64,000 nt of DNA from Escherichia coli O157 typing phage 13, in the sequence record KP869111; one strand, given 5' to 3'. This document shows, piece by piece, positions 10,635-60,661 of this stretch (positions are counted from its first letter, which is position 1; each line of letters begins with the position of its first letter). Position numbers and translations under genes: made by a program. The notes beneath the pieces were generated by a model. It made no database searches and was not told the origin of the DNA. It worked only from the letters and a program-made list of their open reading frames with translations.

Positions 10635-11243
10635 TCAGTAACTGACAATAGACAGATTCCAGATTGTATAACGTCCATCTTGAATAATAGAATCTACACG
10701 CAGTGTAGTCCCTATAGGGAGCATAAATTCACATTCGTCAGATATAAGTCTAGCATTAGACCGTCTTGTCGCTTCAGGGAAAGCTCCATTGAACTCACAA
10801 GATGGCGCAGCCAGAATCATGTTAAGCATATGTTCACGGAAGTTGAAAGCAAATGGTGCATCTTTGATGCAGAACATATTAAATGTTCCGTAAAAATTAT
10901 ACGAAGCAAAGTTACGTGCTACACCGAACACTGGACTGAAGCTCATTACTCTGTCAAATTTAATAATACTACCAATGCCTTTATCATCAAGTGTAGCCAT
11001 AGTTTTCTTAGAGATTCCACGATACATTGTCTCAGGAACAGAAGACGACCAATTTCTACGAACAATTGCACTTAAATCTTTTTGGATGCTATCAGGCTTG
11101 TTTTCCATACACTGCCATAGTACACTTTGTTCAATGTCACTGAATTGCTCATCGATTTTGTACTGAAGCATATCTTGATAATCCGGGCATTGAGCACGAC
11201 GAACCATTTCTTCAATTTCACACTCGTTATACGGCATAAACAT
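10635..11243 (-). CDS. ADP-ribosyltransferase, ModA/ModB family
   Basis: 202 aa; SSVPETMYRG motif paralogous to next gene; AGGAGA SD; synteny with T4 modA. Confidence 0.6.
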   Translation of the reverse strand: MFMPYNECEIEEMVRRAQCPDYQDMLQYKIDEQFSDIEQSVLWQCMENKPDSIQKDLSAIVRRNWSSSVPETMYRGISKKTMATLDDKGIGSIIKFDRVMSFSPVFGVARNFASYNFYGTFNMFCIKDAPFAFNFREHMLNMILAAPSCEFNGAFPEATRRSNARLISDECEFMLPIGTTLRVDSIIQDGRYTIWNLSIVSY

Positions 11244-11300
11244 TTAGGTTTCTCCTGTGGTTGATAAAGGTATAGTATCATCATCGGAAGAGTTTGTACA

Positions 11301-11882
11301 CTAAAAATTCAACATTTTCAAATGAATGATTTTGTATAATCGAGATAAAGGGTCATATTCTAAGTCTTCAATTTCCACAATCTCAAATCTAGAGATACCT
11401 GAGACCATGTACTCTTGTTCAGATTCAATCATATCTAGGACGTCAACACGCGTTTCTTCCATAACATGCTTAGGGTTCTTTCCGGCGAGTACAATGTTAA
11501 TCATGTTTTGGTAGTAATCAAAAATGAATGGAGCATTCCTGAGACTAAGAATAGTGTACGTCTGATACTCCCAACTCCCAGAGAATTGACGAGCTGTACT
11601 GAAATCAGTTGTGAACGATGTTACTCGTCCAGGAGACCAATGGCATCCAACAGAAAGAAGGGAAAGACGTTCTACTTCTTCTGGAGTTACACCACGGTAG
11701 AGTTCTACTGGTACTGTAGAAGACATATGCTTACGAACAAGATGGTCTAATTCATAGTGGAAATCCGGGTCTTCCTTAGAATCGGTGCAAGCCCAGAGAA
11801 TGTTTTGTTCTTGGCGGGTGAATTTGCTATCAATCAGATTTGTTAGGTATTCGCGTTCTTGAAGTTCAGATTGACATGTCAT
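11301..11882 (-). CDS. ADP-ribosyltransferase, ModA/ModB family (second paralog)
   Basis: 193 aa; STVPVELYRG motif; GGAGG SD inside promoter hairpin; synteny with T4 modB. Confidence 0.6.
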   Translation of the reverse strand: MTCQSELQEREYLTNLIDSKFTRQEQNILWACTDSKEDPDFHYELDHLVRKHMSSTVPVELYRGVTPEEVERLSLLSVGCHWSPGRVTSFTTDFSTARQFSGSWEYQTYTILSLRNAPFIFDYYQNMINIVLAGKNPKHVMEETRVDVLDMIESEQEYMVSGISRFEIVEIEDLEYDPLSRLYKIIHLKMLNF

Positions 11883-16642: not shown

Positions 16643-17293
16643 TTAACCTCGATTCATAAATGCATTAAATATTTGGTCATCAACAGAAATTTCTAATTCG
16701 ACTTCAATTGCTTCGGCCTTTTCTTCAGGTGGTAATTCGTATCCACACACTACAATTTTTTCATCGATATCAAAATATACAGAAGCAATACGATTAATGT
16801 TATTTTCAGTTAAGTCCAAATCAACATCAACATCTTTTTGGCCTACACTTAGAGGATAACTAATACGGGTTATTTTATTATCTTTAACAAAGAGTCCACC
16901 AACATACTCTGTACTACGTTTGAAGTTTACACGTTTCCGAATTGAAAGATATGATACATCTTTACCGTGAGCTCGGCTCATAGGACATAATGAATAGCTA
17001 GAATAAGAGATGTCAAATCCTACACCTTCAATATGAGCCAACGCGTCATGATTAAACCAATTATAATCATATGCCAAATCCATTATATTGTAATATGTGA
17101 AAGGCACAGGATTAACATCATATGTTGTACCTTTAAAATCTGCCCAGGCAACGATTTCGTTATCTTTAACAATTACAAAAATTACACCAATATGGTATCC
17201 TTTATTATTTTCATTCGGCGTTATATTATAACATTGTGCATTAGGAAATTTACCATATTTAAATGGTGCGTTTTTGTGCATATAATAAATCAT
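16643..17293 (-). CDS. hypothetical protein
   Basis: Track M1 is GTG; ATG (MIYYMHK) follows the upstream stop (GAATAATATG). Confidence 0.5.
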   Translation of the reverse strand: MIYYMHKNAPFKYGKFPNAQCYNITPNENNKGYHIGVIFVIVKDNEIVAWADFKGTTYDVNPVPFTYYNIMDLAYDYNWFNHDALAHIEGVGFDISYSSYSLCPMSRAHGKDVSYLSIRKRVNFKRSTEYVGGLFVKDNKITRISYPLSVGQKDVDVDLDLTENNINRIASVYFDIDEKIVVCGYELPPEEKAEAIEVELEISVDDQIFNAFMNRG

Positions 17294-26140: not shown

Positions 26141-26527
26141 TTATAGATTCGGTTTATATGATTTAAATGTTTCGAATTCGCCTTTATTCATAAGAGCTTT
26201 GAATTCGTCAGGACGCATAGCTTTGTCGTCGATAATCCAATCATATACTGGTTTATGTGTTAGCAAATTATGGTACTTCAAACCAATGTTTTCCAAGTTC
26301 TGAATCAGACTTGGGAGAATGTCAATTGCTATACGACCAGGACCTACTGACTTCATACCGCGAGCAGTGTAAAGCGTTATGGTATGCCCTGCATCATACA
26401 GGGCATTAATAGCAGTCACCATTTCGACGTCTGGTTTGAAGTTCACGTAATCACGATTGTTATTCCACTCTGTTATACAATCATCGACATCAAAACAAAG
26501 ATTAAGCATGTTTTCTACACGGTGCAT
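26141..26527 (-). CDS. HAD-superfamily-like small phosphatase
   Basis: FDVDDC (motif I-like DxD), conserved K, IIDD (motif IV-like); start at ATG overlapping upstream stop. Confidence 0.5.
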   Translation of the reverse strand: MHRVENMLNLCFDVDDCITEWNNNRDYVNFKPDVEMVTAINALYDAGHTITLYTARGMKSVGPGRIAIDILPSLIQNLENIGLKYHNLLTHKPVYDWIIDDKAMRPDEFKALMNKGEFETFKSYKPNL

Positions 26528-28212
26528 TAGATTCGTTCCCATTGATGAGTGATATCGCCACCGATTGGACGATAAGAAACACCAGTTTCTTTATCAGTTA
26601 GTACCCATTTACCAGGATTTTTTGTAATCAGAGTAGCCGTTACAGGTTCTGCTACGTCATAACTAATAGAGCCGTCCTGAAGTACACGGCCCATGTTACG
26701 TAATTGCTTAGTCAGAAGTTCCATACCTTTATAATATGCGGCTACCGCTTTAAGTGGATTATTCTTGAAATAACCACCTAATGCAATCCAGATAATTGCT
26801 ACAGCCAAATGATGATACTCGTTAAACGAACTCATCTTTCCATATTTGTAAACTAATGGATTGATGTTAATAGTCACATTACAAGTTGTTTCGTCAATAG
26901 TAAACTGTCCCCAGGTCGGATTAGCGTTGAATTCATCATAACCTGAAACAGCATAAAGCACTTTAGCTTCATCATACAATTTTGGCCCGTAAATCTTGGT
27001 TTCGCCAAAATATCCACGAGGGTCGATAAACTTGACTTCGCCGTTATCAGTAATCATAGTATTACTGAAGTTCGGGTCACCGTGAATAACAGAGTACTGT
27101 CCCTGAGAACGGGTATGATAACGAATAAGATGTTCTAAAGCTTGCTTCAGCATTGGCTTCAGACGTCCAATCTTAGTGTAGTTCACGTGTGTGATTTTAC
27201 CAAATGAATCAATCAATGGCTGAATGCTTTCACAACGATCAATAACTTTCGTATAGAACTCTTTAGTGAAATCACGGCGAACAGTTTCAGGACTTACAAA
27301 ATAAGTGTCTGTGCTGAATTTCAGTGCATCTAAAATTGCATCAACAATTTGTGGACGAGCAAGACTTGATTTGGATTTAATATATTCAAATGCTGGCTTA
27401 CCTTTAATACGTTCCATTTCAAAATTATTTTCATTTACCGAAACTAACTGAGGAACTGAATCTGATTTCACTTTCAAATACCATGAAATCTCATCTTTTT
27501 GAAGAGCTCGACCTTGTTCGGTTAACGCGAATTTAGTTACAGTTTCTTCGCCAATTTCAACTGCATTAAAACTACGATTAAGTTCACGAACTTCATGAGC
27601 TTTTTCAAGTTTAGGCATATCACCTAAATCAATTAGATTCATAAGCTCTGATTTATTGAATGCACTGCCGTAAAGGAATTCTACGAAATCACGTCCTTTG
27701 CAGTATTCATGAATTTCCTCATCAGTAGAACCCATGTAGAATTCCCAGTCTTTGAACTGATAAATTCCTACAACATTACCGCCTGTTGAACCTACGTTAG
27801 TGATATTTTCACCATCGAAATTATATCGACATTCATCACCCTTAACATAGATTGCGTTAACATTCCAAGACCATGAACCAAAATCAGGAATAATATCACA
27901 CCAGTTAACAATTACGTTATGGCCATCTAAATCTTTGTATAATTTAGCAAGAGCATAAGCAGAACCATACGCTTCATCAACTGTACGAATAGTCACATTG
28001 AACCCTTCTTGCTCGCAATAAGCTCGAACAGTTTCAGCAAATTTTGAATGAACTACTACAATAATTTCATCTGCGCCAAGGTCAGAATAAATTGTATACA
28101 AATTGCTCAGAATAGTGTCTTGTTTATAGTTAACAAGAACTTTTGGAATATGATGCGTTATTGGATACAAACGAGTTGCCAGTCCAGCACCAAGAATAAC
28201 AGCTTTTTTCAT
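26527..28212 (-). CDS. bifunctional sugar-1-phosphate nucleotidyltransferase (N-term) / small-molecule kinase of APH-choline-kinase fold (C-term)
   Basis: 561 aa; N-terminal ILGAGLATRLYPIT (RmlA/GlmU-like); C-terminal HGDPNFSNTMI...IDP (Brenner kinase motif); GAGGA SD. Confidence 0.65.
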   Translation of the reverse strand: MKKAVILGAGLATRLYPITHHIPKVLVNYKQDTILSNLYTIYSDLGADEIIVVVHSKFAETVRAYCEQEGFNVTIRTVDEAYGSAYALAKLYKDLDGHNVIVNWCDIIPDFGSWSWNVNAIYVKGDECRYNFDGENITNVGSTGGNVVGIYQFKDWEFYMGSTDEEIHEYCKGRDFVEFLYGSAFNKSELMNLIDLGDMPKLEKAHEVRELNRSFNAVEIGEETVTKFALTEQGRALQKDEISWYLKVKSDSVPQLVSVNENNFEMERIKGKPAFEYIKSKSSLARPQIVDAILDALKFSTDTYFVSPETVRRDFTKEFYTKVIDRCESIQPLIDSFGKITHVNYTKIGRLKPMLKQALEHLIRYHTRSQGQYSVIHGDPNFSNTMITDNGEVKFIDPRGYFGETKIYGPKLYDEAKVLYAVSGYDEFNANPTWGQFTIDETTCNVTININPLVYKYGKMSSFNEYHHLAVAIIWIALGGYFKNNPLKAVAAYYKGMELLTKQLRNMGRVLQDGSISYDVAEPVTATLITKNPGKWVLTDKETGVSYRPIGGDITHQWERI

Positions 28213-28253
28213 GTTGTGGTCCTCATTGGTAAGTAGGTGTATTGTACACTATT

Positions 28254-28397
28254 CTAGTTAAAGCATTCATACTTTGCTTGTAGTCCAATCATAATCCATC
28301 CAATTACAAGTGTTGGAATCATTACTGGAGCCGTTAAGCTCCAGTAGATAGTCATGACAAGCATCAATAGTAAAAGTCCTATTGTTATTGCTTTCAT
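28254..28397 (-). CDS. small hydrophobic membrane protein (47 aa)
   Basis: Own translation MKAITIGLLLLMLVMTIYW...; ATG overlaps SIS-gene stop (ATGA); not in ORF track. Confidence 0.4.
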   Translation of the reverse strand: MKAITIGLLLLMLVMTIYWSLTAPVMIPTLVIGWIMIGLQAKYECFN

Positions 28398-29029
28398 TGT
28401 TCGCCTCGTAACATGGCACCTAGTGCACCGCCTGGATGGAACTTAAGAAAGTCATTAGAGGTAAATCCACGTTCAGACGAAAGGTTGATAGCAAACGTAT
28501 CGATAAGCGCTAACAACAATGTAGTGGACATAGTCGGAGCCAGAGAATTCTCATCAACCTCTACCGCGATGCCTGTACAGAAAGAGTAATCAAAAAGGGC
28601 TTCATTTTCTTGCGGAATGTCTGGGTTACAATGCAACAGAATCTGTTTGACATTTGGACGAATCATTTTAAGATGCTTAGCCACGCCTATCATTTCTTCA
28701 GTCTTACCAGAACGACTAATATGAATCAACACATCATTAGGCGCAATGAATCCTGCATCACCGTGAGAATAATGCCCAGTGTTCAAGTACATACTCGGGA
28801 TACCGAGTGAAGCAAATGTCTCAGAAGCTTTAGTTGCAATATTAGCATTCTTACCAACACCTGTAATAATTACTCGGCTTTCATAATTACTAAGTCCAGG
28901 GCGTCGAAGAGTTTCTAGAATAGCATTATAACGAGCAGGGTTTTGACTAATTACTTTGGCCATAGCGGCCAAAGAAGAAGCTTGTTTTATGATTGCGTCA
29001 ATAGCGATAGTAATAGGAGTAGTTTTCAT
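28394..29029 (-). CDS. SIS-domain sugar-phosphate isomerase (arabinose-5-phosphate isomerase KpsF/GutQ-like, no CBS domains)
   Basis: 211 aa; ITGVGKNANIATK...HGDAGFIAPNDVLIHISRSGKTEE...APTMSTT...HPGGALG match the API/SIS signature. Confidence 0.7.
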   Translation of the reverse strand: MKTTPITIAIDAIIKQASSLAAMAKVISQNPARYNAILETLRRPGLSNYESRVIITGVGKNANIATKASETFASLGIPSMYLNTGHYSHGDAGFIAPNDVLIHISRSGKTEEMIGVAKHLKMIRPNVKQILLHCNPDIPQENEALFDYSFCTGIAVEVDENSLAPTMSTTLLLALIDTFAINLSSERGFTSNDFLKFHPGGALGAMLRGEQ

Positions 29030-57282: not shown

Positions 57283-57309
57283 ATATACCTCTTGGTTAGA
57301 TATTAGTAT

Positions 57310-57891
57310 TTATAACAACCCTGTCAAATCATTCCAATGCTTCCGGCATAATGACACGTATCTATCGGTATCACCAATTTCAATTTGACTGCCATCTGTA
57401 ATTGGAAGTCCGTCTTCCGTGACTCTAGCTACCATTGTGGCCTTTTTACCGCAATGACAGACACCTTTAAGTTCAACAAGCTTATCGGCAATAGCCATTA
57501 ATGCTTGAGAACCTTCAAATAGATTACCTTTAAAATCTGTTCGTAGTCCATATGCCATTACTGGCACATTGTATACGTCAACAATACGACTAAGTTGATA
57601 CACCTTTTCAGTAGTTAAGAACTGAGCTTCGTCAACAAATACACAGTGAATATCCTTTTGTGCTGCAGCCCATTTATAGAATTCAAAGATATCCATGTCT
57701 TTTGTAATTATATTGGCATCCTGACGAATACCAATACGAGAGACTATTTCACCTTTTGAATCACGAGTATCAATAGCCGGTTTAAGAACTAATACACCCA
57801 TGCCACGTTCTTTATAGTTATGTGCGGCAGTAAGTAATGAAGAAGACTTACCAGCGTTCATAGCGGCATATGTAAAAATTAAACTAGCCAT
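57310..57891 (-). CDS. tk: thymidine kinase
   Basis: 193 aa; MASLIFTYAAMNAGKS P-loop, C-terminal zinc site CHCGKKAT; matches T4 Tk. Confidence 0.9.
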   Translation of the reverse strand: MASLIFTYAAMNAGKSSSLLTAAHNYKERGMGVLVLKPAIDTRDSKGEIVSRIGIRQDANIITKDMDIFEFYKWAAAQKDIHCVFVDEAQFLTTEKVYQLSRIVDVYNVPVMAYGLRTDFKGNLFEGSQALMAIADKLVELKGVCHCGKKATMVARVTEDGLPITDGSQIEIGDTDRYVSLCRKHWNDLTGLL

Positions 57892-57900
57892 AAGAGTCCC

Positions 57901-58083
57901 TTATAGTGAATTCACGTAGTCAATGAGTTCTTGTTCTTTCCTGTCAAATGATTCCAACAATGCTTGATATTCTTCATCTGTTAAAGGAGCATATTCATCG
58001 TACGCATTGGTGGCTGCTTGCTCATCCAATAGGTCATGGATAAGTTCGAATAGTTTAGCTTTCTCTTCTTTAGTTAATTTCAT
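57901..58083 (-). CDS. hypothetical small acidic protein
   Basis: 60-aa ORF. Confidence 0.4.
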   Translation of the reverse strand: MKLTKEEKAKLFELIHDLLDEQAATNAYDEYAPLTDEEYQALLESFDRKEQELIDYVNSL

Positions 58084-58307
58084 TTAGGTTCACCTTCTTT
58101 AACGAAATCTGGGTAAGGGTAAAATCCTGAGTAAAACCCTTCACCTTTATGATTGCTACAACCTTTGTTCGAACAGTAACACCAATAATCAAAATCACAA
58201 GCCATTTCGTCATTGCATAAAGCAAAAACTACAGGCCATTCGCATTTTTCGCATTTAGCACCTGTAAGAATTTTTGTTTGACTCATAACCATGTCACCTT
58301 TAAGCAA
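58080..58307 (-). CDS. small Cys-rich protein
   Basis: 75 aa with 8 Cys (putative zinc binding). Confidence 0.4.
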   Translation of the reverse strand: MLKGDMVMSQTKILTGAKCEKCEWPVVFALCNDEMACDFDYWCYCSNKGCSNHKGEGFYSGFYPYPDFVKEGEPK

Positions 58308-58510
58308 TATTCTTCTACATGTTGTTTACGGCCTTTCTTATCAATAAAGGTATATTCAACGAATGTTCCGATGTAGTCTTTATCTACATCATGTGGACTA
58401 TTAATTGGACATTTGGTACGACAAATGCGTTCCCATTGACGAATAATTACTGCCTTATTCTTTGGGTCATATGGATGTGGATAATGTATATTCATAATAA
58501 CGGTTCCCAA
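58283..58510 (-). CDS. hypothetical small protein
   Basis: 75-aa ORF. Confidence 0.4.
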   Translation of the reverse strand: MGTVIMNIHYPHPYDPKNKAVIIRQWERICRTKCPINSPHDVDKDYIGTFVEYTFIDKKGRKQHVEEYCLKVTWL

Positions 58511-58989
58511 TCAACAATCACAATTTCTAGTTTAGTGGAATACGTATCTAAAATCTCTTCGATGACATCCCAGTTTCCGCCACCGATACCTGCACCAATT
58601 CTTGGCATATAAATTACAGGCTTTGTTATCTTATTCTTTCCGAATTCATTTAATTCTATTATACAATTCATTAAAGCAGAGTACTCAAAATTAGGTCCCG
58701 GCTCAAACTGCGTATAAAGATTAAAGCAATAAGCTTTATGGGTCTTAAAATATTTTTCATAAACCGAATAAGTCCCGAGTTTAGACTCGTCTCCGAATTC
58801 GGTTTGAAGTTTATCGGCTTCCAGAATTTTTGGATAAGCCTTTGCTAATTGTCCTGCCACACCGGCGCCCATTGTATGAAAACAATTACACCCATGAGCA
58901 ATATTATTACCTTTAGAAAACAGGGCGACAATATCGCCCTTGATATAGTTTTTAATCACTTGCTGCAAGTCCTCTAGTATAAGAGTCAA
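58492..58989 (-). CDS. macro-domain-like protein (putative ADP-ribose binding / ADP-ribosyl hydrolase)
   Basis: 165 aa; motifs NIAHGCNCFHTMGAGVAGQL and PRIGAGIGGG resemble macro domain glycine-rich loops. Confidence 0.45.
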   Translation of the reverse strand: MTLILEDLQQVIKNYIKGDIVALFSKGNNIAHGCNCFHTMGAGVAGQLAKAYPKILEADKLQTEFGDESKLGTYSVYEKYFKTHKAYCFNLYTQFEPGPNFEYSALMNCIIELNEFGKNKITKPVIYMPRIGAGIGGGNWDVIEEILDTYSTKLEIVIVDWEPLL

Positions 58990-59299
58990 CTAGACGGTCC
59001 ACCATAGAATTGCATGCTGCCTTATCTTTAGGTTCCGCCACCGAGCATTCTAATATTTGCCATTTTTTATAGTATCTTTTAATTAAGGTAGACGCCTTGA
59101 ACCTACTAGACGCCCCATCTTTTTCTCCGTCTTTATACGCGTATAACAATTTTTGTGAAAAATCTACTTTACACTCTTGACTTTTACCACAATAATCAGA
59201 CGCCGTTCTGTTTGTATACTCCGTTACATCAGTATATGTAGTATTAGCAAGAGCGTTAAATGAAACCAAGCTAACTATTAAAGCCAACATTTTGGTCAT
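58952..59299 (-). CDS. secreted Cys-containing protein
   Basis: 115 aa; signal peptide MTKMLALIVSLVSFNALA. Confidence 0.4.
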   Translation of the reverse strand: MTKMLALIVSLVSFNALANTTYTDVTEYTNRTASDYCGKSQECKVDFSQKLLYAYKDGEKDGASSRFKASTLIKRYYKKWQILECSVAEPKDKAACNSMVDRLVDSYTRGLAASD

Positions 59300-59838
59300 T
59301 CTTTTATTTCCAGTAGTTTATTTGATTTAAGGTAATTAGCCTTTTCTAGGACTTCAGAAGCATATTTACTTCCAGCACTTGTCTTCCATCCCGCATTATA
59401 TGAGGATATGGCTTTTCTTATATCCCCGTTATGTATATTTAACCAATAAGAAAATTCGATATAAGCCCATCTGGCTGAATTAGACCGCTTAGATAGCATT
59501 TTCTTAATTTGGGCATCAGTCATATTATAACCAAGCTGGTTAATTCTTGCCCTCATTGTTGGTAGATAGTTTTGGAACATTCCATACGCATGGTGACCTT
59601 TCTTATCTTTAAGATTAATACCGGCAGATGATTCTTGCCATAGTATTGCGGCCATTATGTATCCAAGTCCTTTCTTATGCATATTTTCATGCGTTTTAAA
59701 TTTTCCATCCTTAGAAAACTGTTCCCCAAACTGATAAGCATAATTCAAGTTATCGAGTTGGACATTACTAAAAGTATGCTCGGAGCTATGTGCTGATAAC
59801 GAAAGAGCAAATAGACCAGCGAGTAGTGCTTTTCTCAT
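59296..59838 (-). CDS. secreted lytic-transglycosylase-like (SLT domain) protein
   Basis: 180 aa; signal peptide; WQESS...AYGMFQ resembles the SLT catalytic E-S and GLMQ motifs. Confidence 0.55.
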   Translation of the reverse strand: MRKALLAGLFALSLSAHSSEHTFSNVQLDNLNYAYQFGEQFSKDGKFKTHENMHKKGLGYIMAAILWQESSAGINLKDKKGHHAYGMFQNYLPTMRARINQLGYNMTDAQIKKMLSKRSNSARWAYIEFSYWLNIHNGDIRKAISSYNAGWKTSAGSKYASEVLEKANYLKSNKLLEIKE

Positions 59839-59846
59839 GTTTACCT

Positions 59847-60305
59847 CTAGATTTTAATCACTGCTTTAGAAGCTTTTCCTGGTAGTCGTTTACTGTTAAT
59901 AATAGCCATTCTGCATTGAAGAGTCTTCATTTTGAATGCTGGATTTTCGCGACAAACTGTAAGTCCTAACCAAAGATTTCCATCAGTTATTTCTAAACGG
60001 CCTGGGCGATATTCGACACCTTCGACAAAATCTTCATCAACATCTGGACGGGCTGGCATTGATAAAAATTCTGCAACTTCTTTAACATGATTTTTTACTT
60101 TATGAAATAATTCAAAAACGTAATTCTCATCTATTTCTCTCTGGATGGCACGATCTAAGAGATGTTGAGAATACTTGATATGAAAGCCTGGTAGTCCAAG
60201 AGACTTTGCAGCATCTTTTATACTGGCATTTATTTTGCGGAACTCCGTTTCAAAGATTCGACGGAGTTTATTGCGGCGGATAAAAACGTCTGAATTGATA
60301 GTCAT
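59847..60305 (-). CDS. regB: RegB site-specific endoribonuclease
   Basis: 152 aa; MTINSDVFIRRNKLRR...KYSQHLLDRAIQREIDE matches T4 RegB. Confidence 0.85.
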   Translation of the reverse strand: MTINSDVFIRRNKLRRIFETEFRKINASIKDAAKSLGLPGFHIKYSQHLLDRAIQREIDENYVFELFHKVKNHVKEVAEFLSMPARPDVDEDFVEGVEYRPGRLEITDGNLWLGLTVCRENPAFKMKTLQCRMAIINSKRLPGKASKAVIKI

Positions 60306-60333
60306 TTTGATTTCTCCTCTAGTTGACAGGTCT

Positions 60334-60362
60334 ATAGTAACACAACTAGAGGAGAAGTAAAC
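60334..60362 (-). promoter_or_regulatory. early-type promoter GTTTAC-N17-TACTAT within inverted repeat (CCTCTAGTTG / CAACTAGAGG) pairing with regB SD
   Basis: arms at 60315-60324 and 60343-60352. Confidence 0.55.
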
Positions 60363-60661
60363 TACTCTTTGAAAGGAATTAACTTTTTAACTGCTTTAGA
60401 TACTTCGTCACGAACCTGGTGGAAGTTCTTGAGCTGTTCAAGGCGTTGTTCGTAATACGCAATCTCATCTTCTTCAAGACAATCGTCAGCGTCTTCTTTC
60501 AGATATGCCTTGTACTCATTAAAGAGGGCCCATAGGCGGTTCTCAAAGTCATCAAGGCTTTGAATTTTCTTGTGCTTCGGAACAAGGCCAAAAGGATTGC
60601 TTTCAGTTATGCGTCGAGATGCTTCATAATGAGTTCCAAAGCCTGATAGGATTTGAGCCAT
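60362..60661 (-). CDS. hypothetical protein
   Basis: Track ORF trimmed to MAQILSG with TAATG coupling. Confidence 0.4.

Follow-up and report, generated by a model that had tools for sequence, protein, structure and literature searches.

The macro-domain gene of Escherichia coli O157 typing phage 13 (KP869111), which is located on the minus strand at positions 58492–58959 of the window (the whole stretch of 64,000 nucleotides that was analysed), is, as judged from protein identity and gene order, the Mosigvirus ortholog of T4 tk.4, also known as adfM. With a probability of roughly 0.78, its product is a stand-alone TARG1/ALC1-like macrodomain of 155 amino acids that serves as an anti-defence enzyme by reversing the marks left on DNA by the toxin DarT2. 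The gene had already been annotated as coding for a macro domain and a function has been published for its T4 ortholog; the window in itself adds little new knowledge, and the useful remainder is mechanistic. The small addition made by the present analysis concerns the active site, which the alignments show to be of the glutamine type found in SCO6735, and the separation of the T4-type proteins from the DarG-like AdfM of phage PhiKZ.

Reading frame, genomic neighbourhood and fold

The longest open reading frame at this locus encodes 165 amino acids, running on the minus strand from a TTG at 58989 to a stop at 58492, and the preliminary description took it at full length as a protein of 165 residues. 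The reading frame is indeed present, but its start has to be moved. In the public annotation of E. coli O157 typing phage 3 the coding sequence comprises 468 nt (58492–58959 in the window), begins with a GTG and yields a product of 155 amino acids, labelled 'macro domain protein' in GenBank and 'phosphatase' in RefSeq. The GTG at 58959 occupies the position of the ATG of T4 tk.4, directly upstream of which T4 has an in-frame TAG, and in the alignments the homologues all start at the motif M-I-x-x-Y-I-K-G-D. Given the annotated GTG, the upstream TAG of T4 and the N-termini of the homologues, the TTG at 58989 was rejected as the start and the 165-residue version is regarded as merely the maximal reading; the true start is most likely to be the GTG at 58959, 10 nt upstream of which lies a Shine–Dalgarno-like GAGGA sequence. 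The in-frame extension that begins with the TTG (58960–58989, minus strand), corresponding to the first ten codons of the longer reading, is contained in the 3′ end of vs and is unlikely to be translated together with the macro-domain protein, while the shorter coding sequence overlaps vs, at its stop codon, by 8 nt.

The gene belongs to an unbroken minus-strand run of tightly packed or overlapping genes, which includes thymidine kinase (57310–57891), three small open reading frames, the macro-domain frame itself, a frame of 115 amino acids (58952–59299) and another of 180 amino acids. The annotated neighbours include thymidine kinase and the valyl-tRNA synthetase modifier (vs), and the gene is immediately flanked by vs and tk.3. 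Neither a promoter nor a terminator of its own was found for the macro-domain gene, the scan having returned 13 promoter-like sites where 13.1 were expected. Positions 57300–60400 of the window are 100.0% identical to Escherichia coli O157 typing phage 3 (KP869101/NC_041863), which is classified in Straboviridae, Tevenvirinae, Mosigvirus, and the gene order regB–vs.1–vs–tk.4–tk.3–tk.2–tk.1–tk is common to T4 and the typing phage.

In a tblastn search against phage genomes, the protein displayed 83.9% identity to T4 Tk.4 over 155 of 155 residues. The two proteins agree in length, start position, flanking genes (vs upstream and tk.3 downstream) and all of the residues that are invariant in the family. 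They differ in that Tk.4 is a Tequatrovirus protein with an ATG start, whereas that of phage 13 is of the Mosigvirus type, starts with GTG and carries about 25 substitutions, none of which is found at an invariant position.

The preliminary description had recognized two glycine-rich loops resembling the ADP-ribose-binding motifs of macro domains, and had named structure prediction as a check on which a macro fold should stand or fall. Both loops are present, and the Pfam, PHROG, profile and fold comparisons agree with this assignment. The Pfam Macro profile (PF01661) matches with 28.1 bits, above its gathering score of 22, at E = 2.2e-6, the alignment spanning profile positions 2–117 of 118, and PHROG 335, which bears the label 'phosphatase', matches with E = 7e-67. 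When compared as a single sequence with solved macrodomains, the protein retrieves BT1257 (6.5e-11), yeast Poa1p (1e-8), SCO6735 (7e-5), DarG (9e-4) and TARG1 (1e-3), and a profile of 60 homologues matches solved macrodomains with E-values from 2e-17 to 6e-12. An AlphaFold2 model computed on the 60-sequence alignment (mean pLDDT 95.9, pTM 0.91) has the three-layer α/β/α arrangement of the macro fold, so that on this check the proposal stood. The best solved structures retrieved with the model by Foldseek are TARG1 and Poa1p (the top two, with E-values of 3.6e-10 and 2e-9, respectively), DarG from T. aquaticus and M. tuberculosis, BT1257 and SCO6735, all with a probability of 1.00 and TM-scores of about 0.7–0.8; viral macrodomains rank next. 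There were 134 PDB matches at E ≤ 0.001, the best 50 of which are macrodomains or designed enzymes that match together with them. When predicted viral structures were searched, the highest-ranking hits with a name were macro-domain proteins of phages, one of them being 'tk.4' of Acinetobacter phage 133. With the profile searches and the predicted fold in agreement, the open reading frame is judged to be real and to encode a macro domain.

Active-site architecture and place among related macrodomains

The first glycine-rich loop, MGAGVAG (M30–G36; 58852–58872, minus strand), corresponds to the GxG loop of macro domains and aligns with the MGAG of TARG1 and the MGKG of DarG. The second, PRIGAGIGGGNW (P119–W130; 58570–58605, minus strand), is the putative diphosphate-binding loop and aligns with PRIGCGLDRLQW of TARG1 and PPLGxGNGGLDW of DarG; both loops also have aligned counterparts in SCO6735. 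Asn25 (codon at 58885–58887, minus strand), which lies in an H-G-C-N-C motif, is equivalent in the alignments to N22 of DarG and N23 of PhiKZ AdfM, and Gln84 (codon at 58708–58710, minus strand) occupies the position of the catalytic lysine. Indeed, profile–profile alignments with hhalign and two MAFFT alignments place Q84 opposite K84 of TARG1, K80 of DarG and Gln85 of SCO6735, the aligned motifs being N-L-Y-T-Q in the phage protein, N-F-P-T-K in DarG, Y-L-I-T-K in TARG1 and N-M-I-G-Q in SCO6735. A pairwise phmmer alignment with BT1257 ran ungapped through the loop and put Q84 elsewhere; this register was discounted because the match of N80-x-x-x-Q84 to N-M-I-G-Q is consistent between hhalign and MAFFT and because residue 84 is the very last one of the strand in the model.

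Conservation was assessed over 120 sequences (119 homologues and the query), with identities down to about 39%. Q84 is invariant in all 120, as are N80, Y82, D49, G33 and A35, with G31 nearly so, while C26 is found in 119 of the sequences (the remaining one having a gap) and N25 in 118. In the second loop, P119, I121, G122 and G124 show no variation among the 60 aligned sequences and are present in 119 of the 120 sequences of the larger set, again with a single gap. By these alignments, the active site of the Tk.4 family is of a glutamine type (N25 and N80-x-x-x-Q84), unlike the lysine type of DarG and TARG1. By analogy, the absence of the lysine is not to be read as a sign of inactivity, since SCO6735 has a glutamine (Gln85) at this position and yet removes thymidine-linked ADP-ribose. 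In this reaction on DNA it is more efficient than either DarG or TARG1, and it rescues E. coli from DarT, the Q85A mutant being inactive (PMC9411070). A mechanism has been proposed for SCO6735 in which the distal ribose is held in place by the glutamine and catalysis is started by a backbone-bound water, and the reversal of thymidine ADP-ribosylation has been described as an activity common to the ALC1-like class (PMC9411070).

SCO6735 (PDB entry 5E3B) and BT1257 (PDB entry 2FG1), the latter being the best solved match by sequence both in the single-sequence search and with the profile (2e-17), are about 23–31% identical to the phage protein and share with it the H-x-C-N motif (IAHGCN in the phage protein and IAHVCN in SCO6735), the N-x-x-x-Q motif and the glutamine at the catalytic position. 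On the other hand, the mobile loop that follows the glutamine in SCO6735 is five residues longer than that of the phage protein, in which equivalents of K34 and K89 are also absent, and SCO6735 and BT1257 serve bacteria in housekeeping or stress and are not phage anti-defence genes. The extra mobile loop and K89 were tied by the authors of the SCO6735 study to its high activity on DNA, and their absence from the phage protein is a point against an action on DNA.

The macrodomains of DarG from M. tuberculosis (PDB entry 5M3I) and T. aquaticus (PDB entries 5M31 and 5M3E) have the same fold as the phage protein (Foldseek probability 1.00, TM-scores of about 0.73–0.75) and an equivalent of the conserved Asn25 in N22, and DarG opposes the very toxin, DarT2, that is at issue here. 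DarG is also the only match of the phage protein in NCBIfam and the only one in PADLOC, in both cases over the macro part. The score against the DarG equivalog model NF048014, however, is 31.9 bits where the cut-off is 250, with model positions 4–146 of 338 covered. Neither the DarT-binding C-terminal domain nor an adjacent darT gene is present, the protein of 155 amino acids consisting of a macro domain only and its gene neighbouring vs and tk.3. Membership of the DarG family was rejected on the basis of the score, the missing C-terminal domain, the replacement of Lys80 by Gln84 and the position of the Tk.4 family in a separate clade.

In a neighbour-joining tree with 200 bootstraps, the Tk.4 family forms a clade of its own (100% bootstrap), while PhiKZ gp104 clusters with three DarG macrodomains (100% bootstrap). 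The Tk.4 family joins the DarG group in 0.5% of the replicates, SCO6735/BT1257 in 7.5%, Poa1p in 18.5% and TARG1 in 25.5%, so that the tree singles out no sister group. The glutamine and the H-x-C-N motif of SCO6735 are found in the phage protein without the extended loop and without a phylogenetic grouping with SCO6735. That the clade groups with neither DarG nor SCO6735, in a protein devoid of the DarT-binding domain of DarG, also counts against a reversal of DarT2 marks. Human TARG1 (OARD1) and yeast Poa1p resemble the phage protein in domain size and loop motifs; the catalytic dyad of TARG1, K84/D125, is nevertheless replaced by Q84/G126, with Gly126 aligned at the D125 position.

Like Tk.4, gp104 of PhiKZ is a stand-alone phage macrodomain directed against DarTG2, and it bears the same name, AdfM; it removes DarT2-made T-ADPr from DNA in vitro, an activity that is lowered by the N23A substitution (Cell Rep 2026, PMC13309987). 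The two proteins are only distantly similar (BLASTP E = 6e-4 over 23 residues; hhalign probability 95.8%), and gp104 keeps the lysine of the DarG-type PTK motif (K78) where the Tk.4 family has a glutamine. Since gp104 branches with DarG and the Tk.4 family stands apart, with lysine in one and glutamine in the other, the PhiKZ and T4-type 'AdfM' proteins are judged from alignment and branching to be independent recruitments within the TARG1/ALC1-like class.

Probable counteraction of DarTG2 and alternative activities

The most direct evidence for a function comes from T4. In a HIDEN-SEQ preprint of November 2025, a T4 transposon library was grown on a host expressing DarTG2 and tk.4 emerged as the single significant hit; a clean tk.4 knockout rendered T4 sensitive to DarTG2, and the gene was conditionally required only when DarTG2 was present (bioRxiv 10.1101/2025.11.20.689424). 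The same study noted the structural similarity of Tk.4 to M. tuberculosis DarG, renamed the gene adfM (anti-DarT factor Macrodomain) and graded the enzymatic removal of ADP-ribose from DNA by Tk.4 only as 'seems likely' (bioRxiv 10.1101/2025.11.20.689424). Earlier work had found that the loss of both AdfA and AdfN leaves T4 resistant to DarTG2, from which a further factor was predicted. The literature consulted yielded no biochemical assay of a Tk.4-type protein. The suggestion of the preliminary description that the protein could counter DarT is supported through this ortholog, and for T4 it was already in print; the phenotype is known for T4 only, from a preprint, and by analogy the phage 13 allele would be expected to behave in the same way towards DarTG2.

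In the mechanism favoured here, the host toxin DarT2 modifies single-stranded phage DNA with ADP-ribose on N3 of thymidine, at TNTC motifs, and thereby blocks replication. The two glycine-rich loops of the macrodomain most likely hold the ADP-ribose, and the enzyme then, again most likely, cleaves the bond between ribose and thymine, which would restore normal DNA. If the glutamine-type site operates as in SCO6735, the distal ribose would be oriented by the glutamine and water would initiate the reaction. Protection of the phage would accordingly be expected to come from hydrolysis of thymidine-linked ADP-ribose.

The label 'phosphatase' given by RefSeq and PHROG 335 derives from the resemblance to Poa1p, which is an ADP-ribose-1''-phosphate phosphatase, and the label fits a different role, in which the protein would act as a Poa1p-like phosphatase or as an O-acetyl-ADP-ribose deacetylase on soluble derivatives, perhaps on defence signals of TIR or sirtuin origin. 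The likeness to Poa1p goes beyond the label: the single-sequence match is strong (E = 1e-8), the N-terminal motifs read IAHGCNC in the phage protein and LIHSCNC in Poa1p, H23 of Poa1p corresponds to His22, and Poa1p has the highest query-normalised TM-score among the solved structures (0.80). Moreover, soluble ADP-ribose derivatives have been put forward as the targets of most phage macro domains (Iyer et al., 2022; PMC9503650). However, an enzyme of this kind would leave unexplained the DarTG2-specific phenotype, the only one found for the T4 ortholog, and Poa1p has a serine at the catalytic position, where the phage family has an invariant glutamine as in the DNA hydrolase SCO6735, as well as a large helical insertion that is absent from the phage protein. 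To our knowledge, there is also no source of ADP-ribose-1''-phosphate that is specific to T-even infection, and we consider a role confined to soluble substrates improbable. A Poa1p-like activity and the de-ADP-ribosylation of DNA are not mutually exclusive.

Somewhat less probable still is a protection that is mainly non-catalytic, by binding and inhibition of DarT2 or by shielding of the ADP-ribosylated DNA. Catalytically dead variants of SCO6735 (Q85A), DarG (K80A) and TARG1 (K84A) do inhibit DarT in vitro, that of SCO6735 most strongly (PMC9411070), and the phage factors AdfA and AdfB work through toxin binding. In contrast, the glutamine-type catalytic residues are invariant over the 120 divergent sequences, pointing to selection for enzymatic activity; the domain with which DarG binds DarT is missing from the phage protein, and PhiKZ AdfM, the only phage macrodomain to have been assayed, is a hydrolase (PMC13309987).

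Phage-encoded ADP-ribosyltransferases and wider implications

The preliminary description had linked the macro-domain protein to two ADP-ribosyltransferases of the same genome, proposing that the phage both writes and erases ADP-ribosylation. The two enzymes are real: the ModA/ModB-like pair at 10635–11882 (open reading frames 10635–11243 and 11301–11882, minus strand) matches PHROG 832, 'RNA polymerase ADP-ribosylase', with E-values of about 1e-38, and carries the same product name in RefSeq, while a Pfam search of both frames gave no match. The coupling of writing to erasing, on the other hand, finds no support. Alt, ModA and ModB modify arginine, and this linkage is reversed by enzymes of the ARH/DraG fold. 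Macrodomains of the TARG1/ALC1 class cleave Asp/Glu esters and thymine- or uracil-linked ADP-ribose, and TARG1 also cleaves phosphate-linked ADP-ribose; we know of no cleavage by this class of the N-glycosidic bond to arginine.

The distribution of the genes points in the same direction. Tk.4-like macrodomains were found by tblastn against phage genomes in 2,799 records from many genera, their carriers including Pseudomonas, Vibrio, Acinetobacter, Aeromonas and Felix-like Salmonella phages, whereas Mod-like proteins were found in 1,077 phage records, mostly of T-even relatives that infect enterobacteria; at least about 1,700 records must therefore hold the macrodomain without a detectable Mod homologue. 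Within the window the pair and the macro-domain gene are separated by 47 kb, and no functional link between them was found. Although the two Mod-like enzymes are encoded by the same genome, and although some ADP-ribose linked to protein is likewise a substrate of SCO6735 and TARG1 (PMC9411070), it is very unlikely, given the arginine linkage, the record counts, the distance and the requirement for T4 tk.4 only in the presence of DarTG2 (bioRxiv 10.1101/2025.11.20.689424), that the macrodomain erases or reads the phage's own Alt, ModA or ModB marks, or ModB RNAylation, and so makes these modifications reversible during infection.

Within the preferred reading of the protein as an enzyme that reverses DarT2 marks, the separate lineage and the glutamine site are established by the alignments and the tree. 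A more far-reaching proposal, tentative and on balance doubtful, is that the T-even macrodomain represents an independent glutamine lineage of the TARG1/ALC1-like class, and not a captured DarG, with a lysine-free mechanism initiated by water and maybe a broader range of substrates. If this were true, its substrates might, speculatively, extend to uracil-linked ADP-ribose on RNA and to Asp/Glu-linked ADP-ribose on proteins, and the enzyme could, apart from DarT2, weaken further ADP-ribosylating defences or influence the ADP-ribosylation carried out by the phage itself.

For the T4-type protein, mutagenesis would be directed at Q84 and N25 rather than at a lysine, and the shared name AdfM conceals two enzyme lineages. 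A second anti-DarT factor, unrelated to the macrodomain, is encoded in a separate gene unit of the window by an AdfA homolog at 16643–17293 (minus strand), which scores 397.9 bits against a cut-off of 27 with the Pfam AdfA profile (PF23813; E = 1e-119). The macro-domain gene belongs to a set of layered phage counter-measures against DNA ADP-ribosylation, which includes AdfA, the NADAR-fold enzyme AdfN and the macrodomain, and with the activity proposed here it shows phages disarming toxin–antitoxin immunity through the enzymatic repair of DNA.

A second predicted anti-DarT factor

Besides the macrodomain gene [58492–58959 (−)], an orthologue of T4 tk.4, the window contains a 216-amino-acid ORF at 16643–17293 (−) that matches over its full length the Pfam family of AdfA (anti-DarT factor A, T4 61.2-like; PF23813, E = 1e-119), and which is labelled in RefSeq merely as a hypothetical protein. 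The window thus encodes two unrelated factors predicted to act against DarT, the ADP-ribosylating toxin of the DarTG defence system.

Surroundings of the macrodomain gene

A sequence scan revealed a terminator-like hairpin at 58922–58940 (−), with an 8 bp stem (five G–C pairs) followed by GTTTTCT, which falls within codons 7–13 of the macrodomain coding sequence, shortly past its start and the overlap with the upstream gene vs. The sequence of the first part of the stem is identical in T4. The match may be fortuitous, or the hairpin may influence translational coupling. Directly 3′ of the macrodomain gene, and overlapping its stop codon by 4 nt, lies a 70-amino-acid ORF [58283–58495 (−); Pfam DUF7202, E = 1.6e-38] in the position of T4 tk.3, the close coupling of which to adfM may or may not matter.

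In public records, the note 'Endoribonuclease RegB' is attached to several neighbouring ORFs, including the vs.1-like ORF [59296–59838 (−)], and its repetition looks like a propagated annotation error; judged by synteny with T4, the real regB orthologue is 59847–60305. The vs.1-like protein displays only a sub-threshold match to the Pfam SLT transglycosylase family (E = 0.0013, 18.8 bits versus 21.3).

Sugar-metabolism genes

Arabinosylated hydroxymethylcytosine is present in RB69-like Mosigviruses. At 26141–29029 (−), adjoining the DNA polymerase gene, a cluster carries the annotations arabinose-5-phosphate isomerase (KpsF), GlmU-like bifunctional enzyme and phosphoheptose isomerase; its genes are plausible as putative suppliers of sugar nucleotides for this DNA modification.

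Two proteins named AdfM

The name AdfM has been given in the literature to two different proteins, T4 Tk.4 and PhiKZ gp104. While the former carries glutamine at the catalytic position and forms a clade of its own, the latter carries lysine and clusters with DarG, the macrodomain antitoxin of DarTG, with 100% bootstrap support. This collision of names could misdirect the transfer of annotation.
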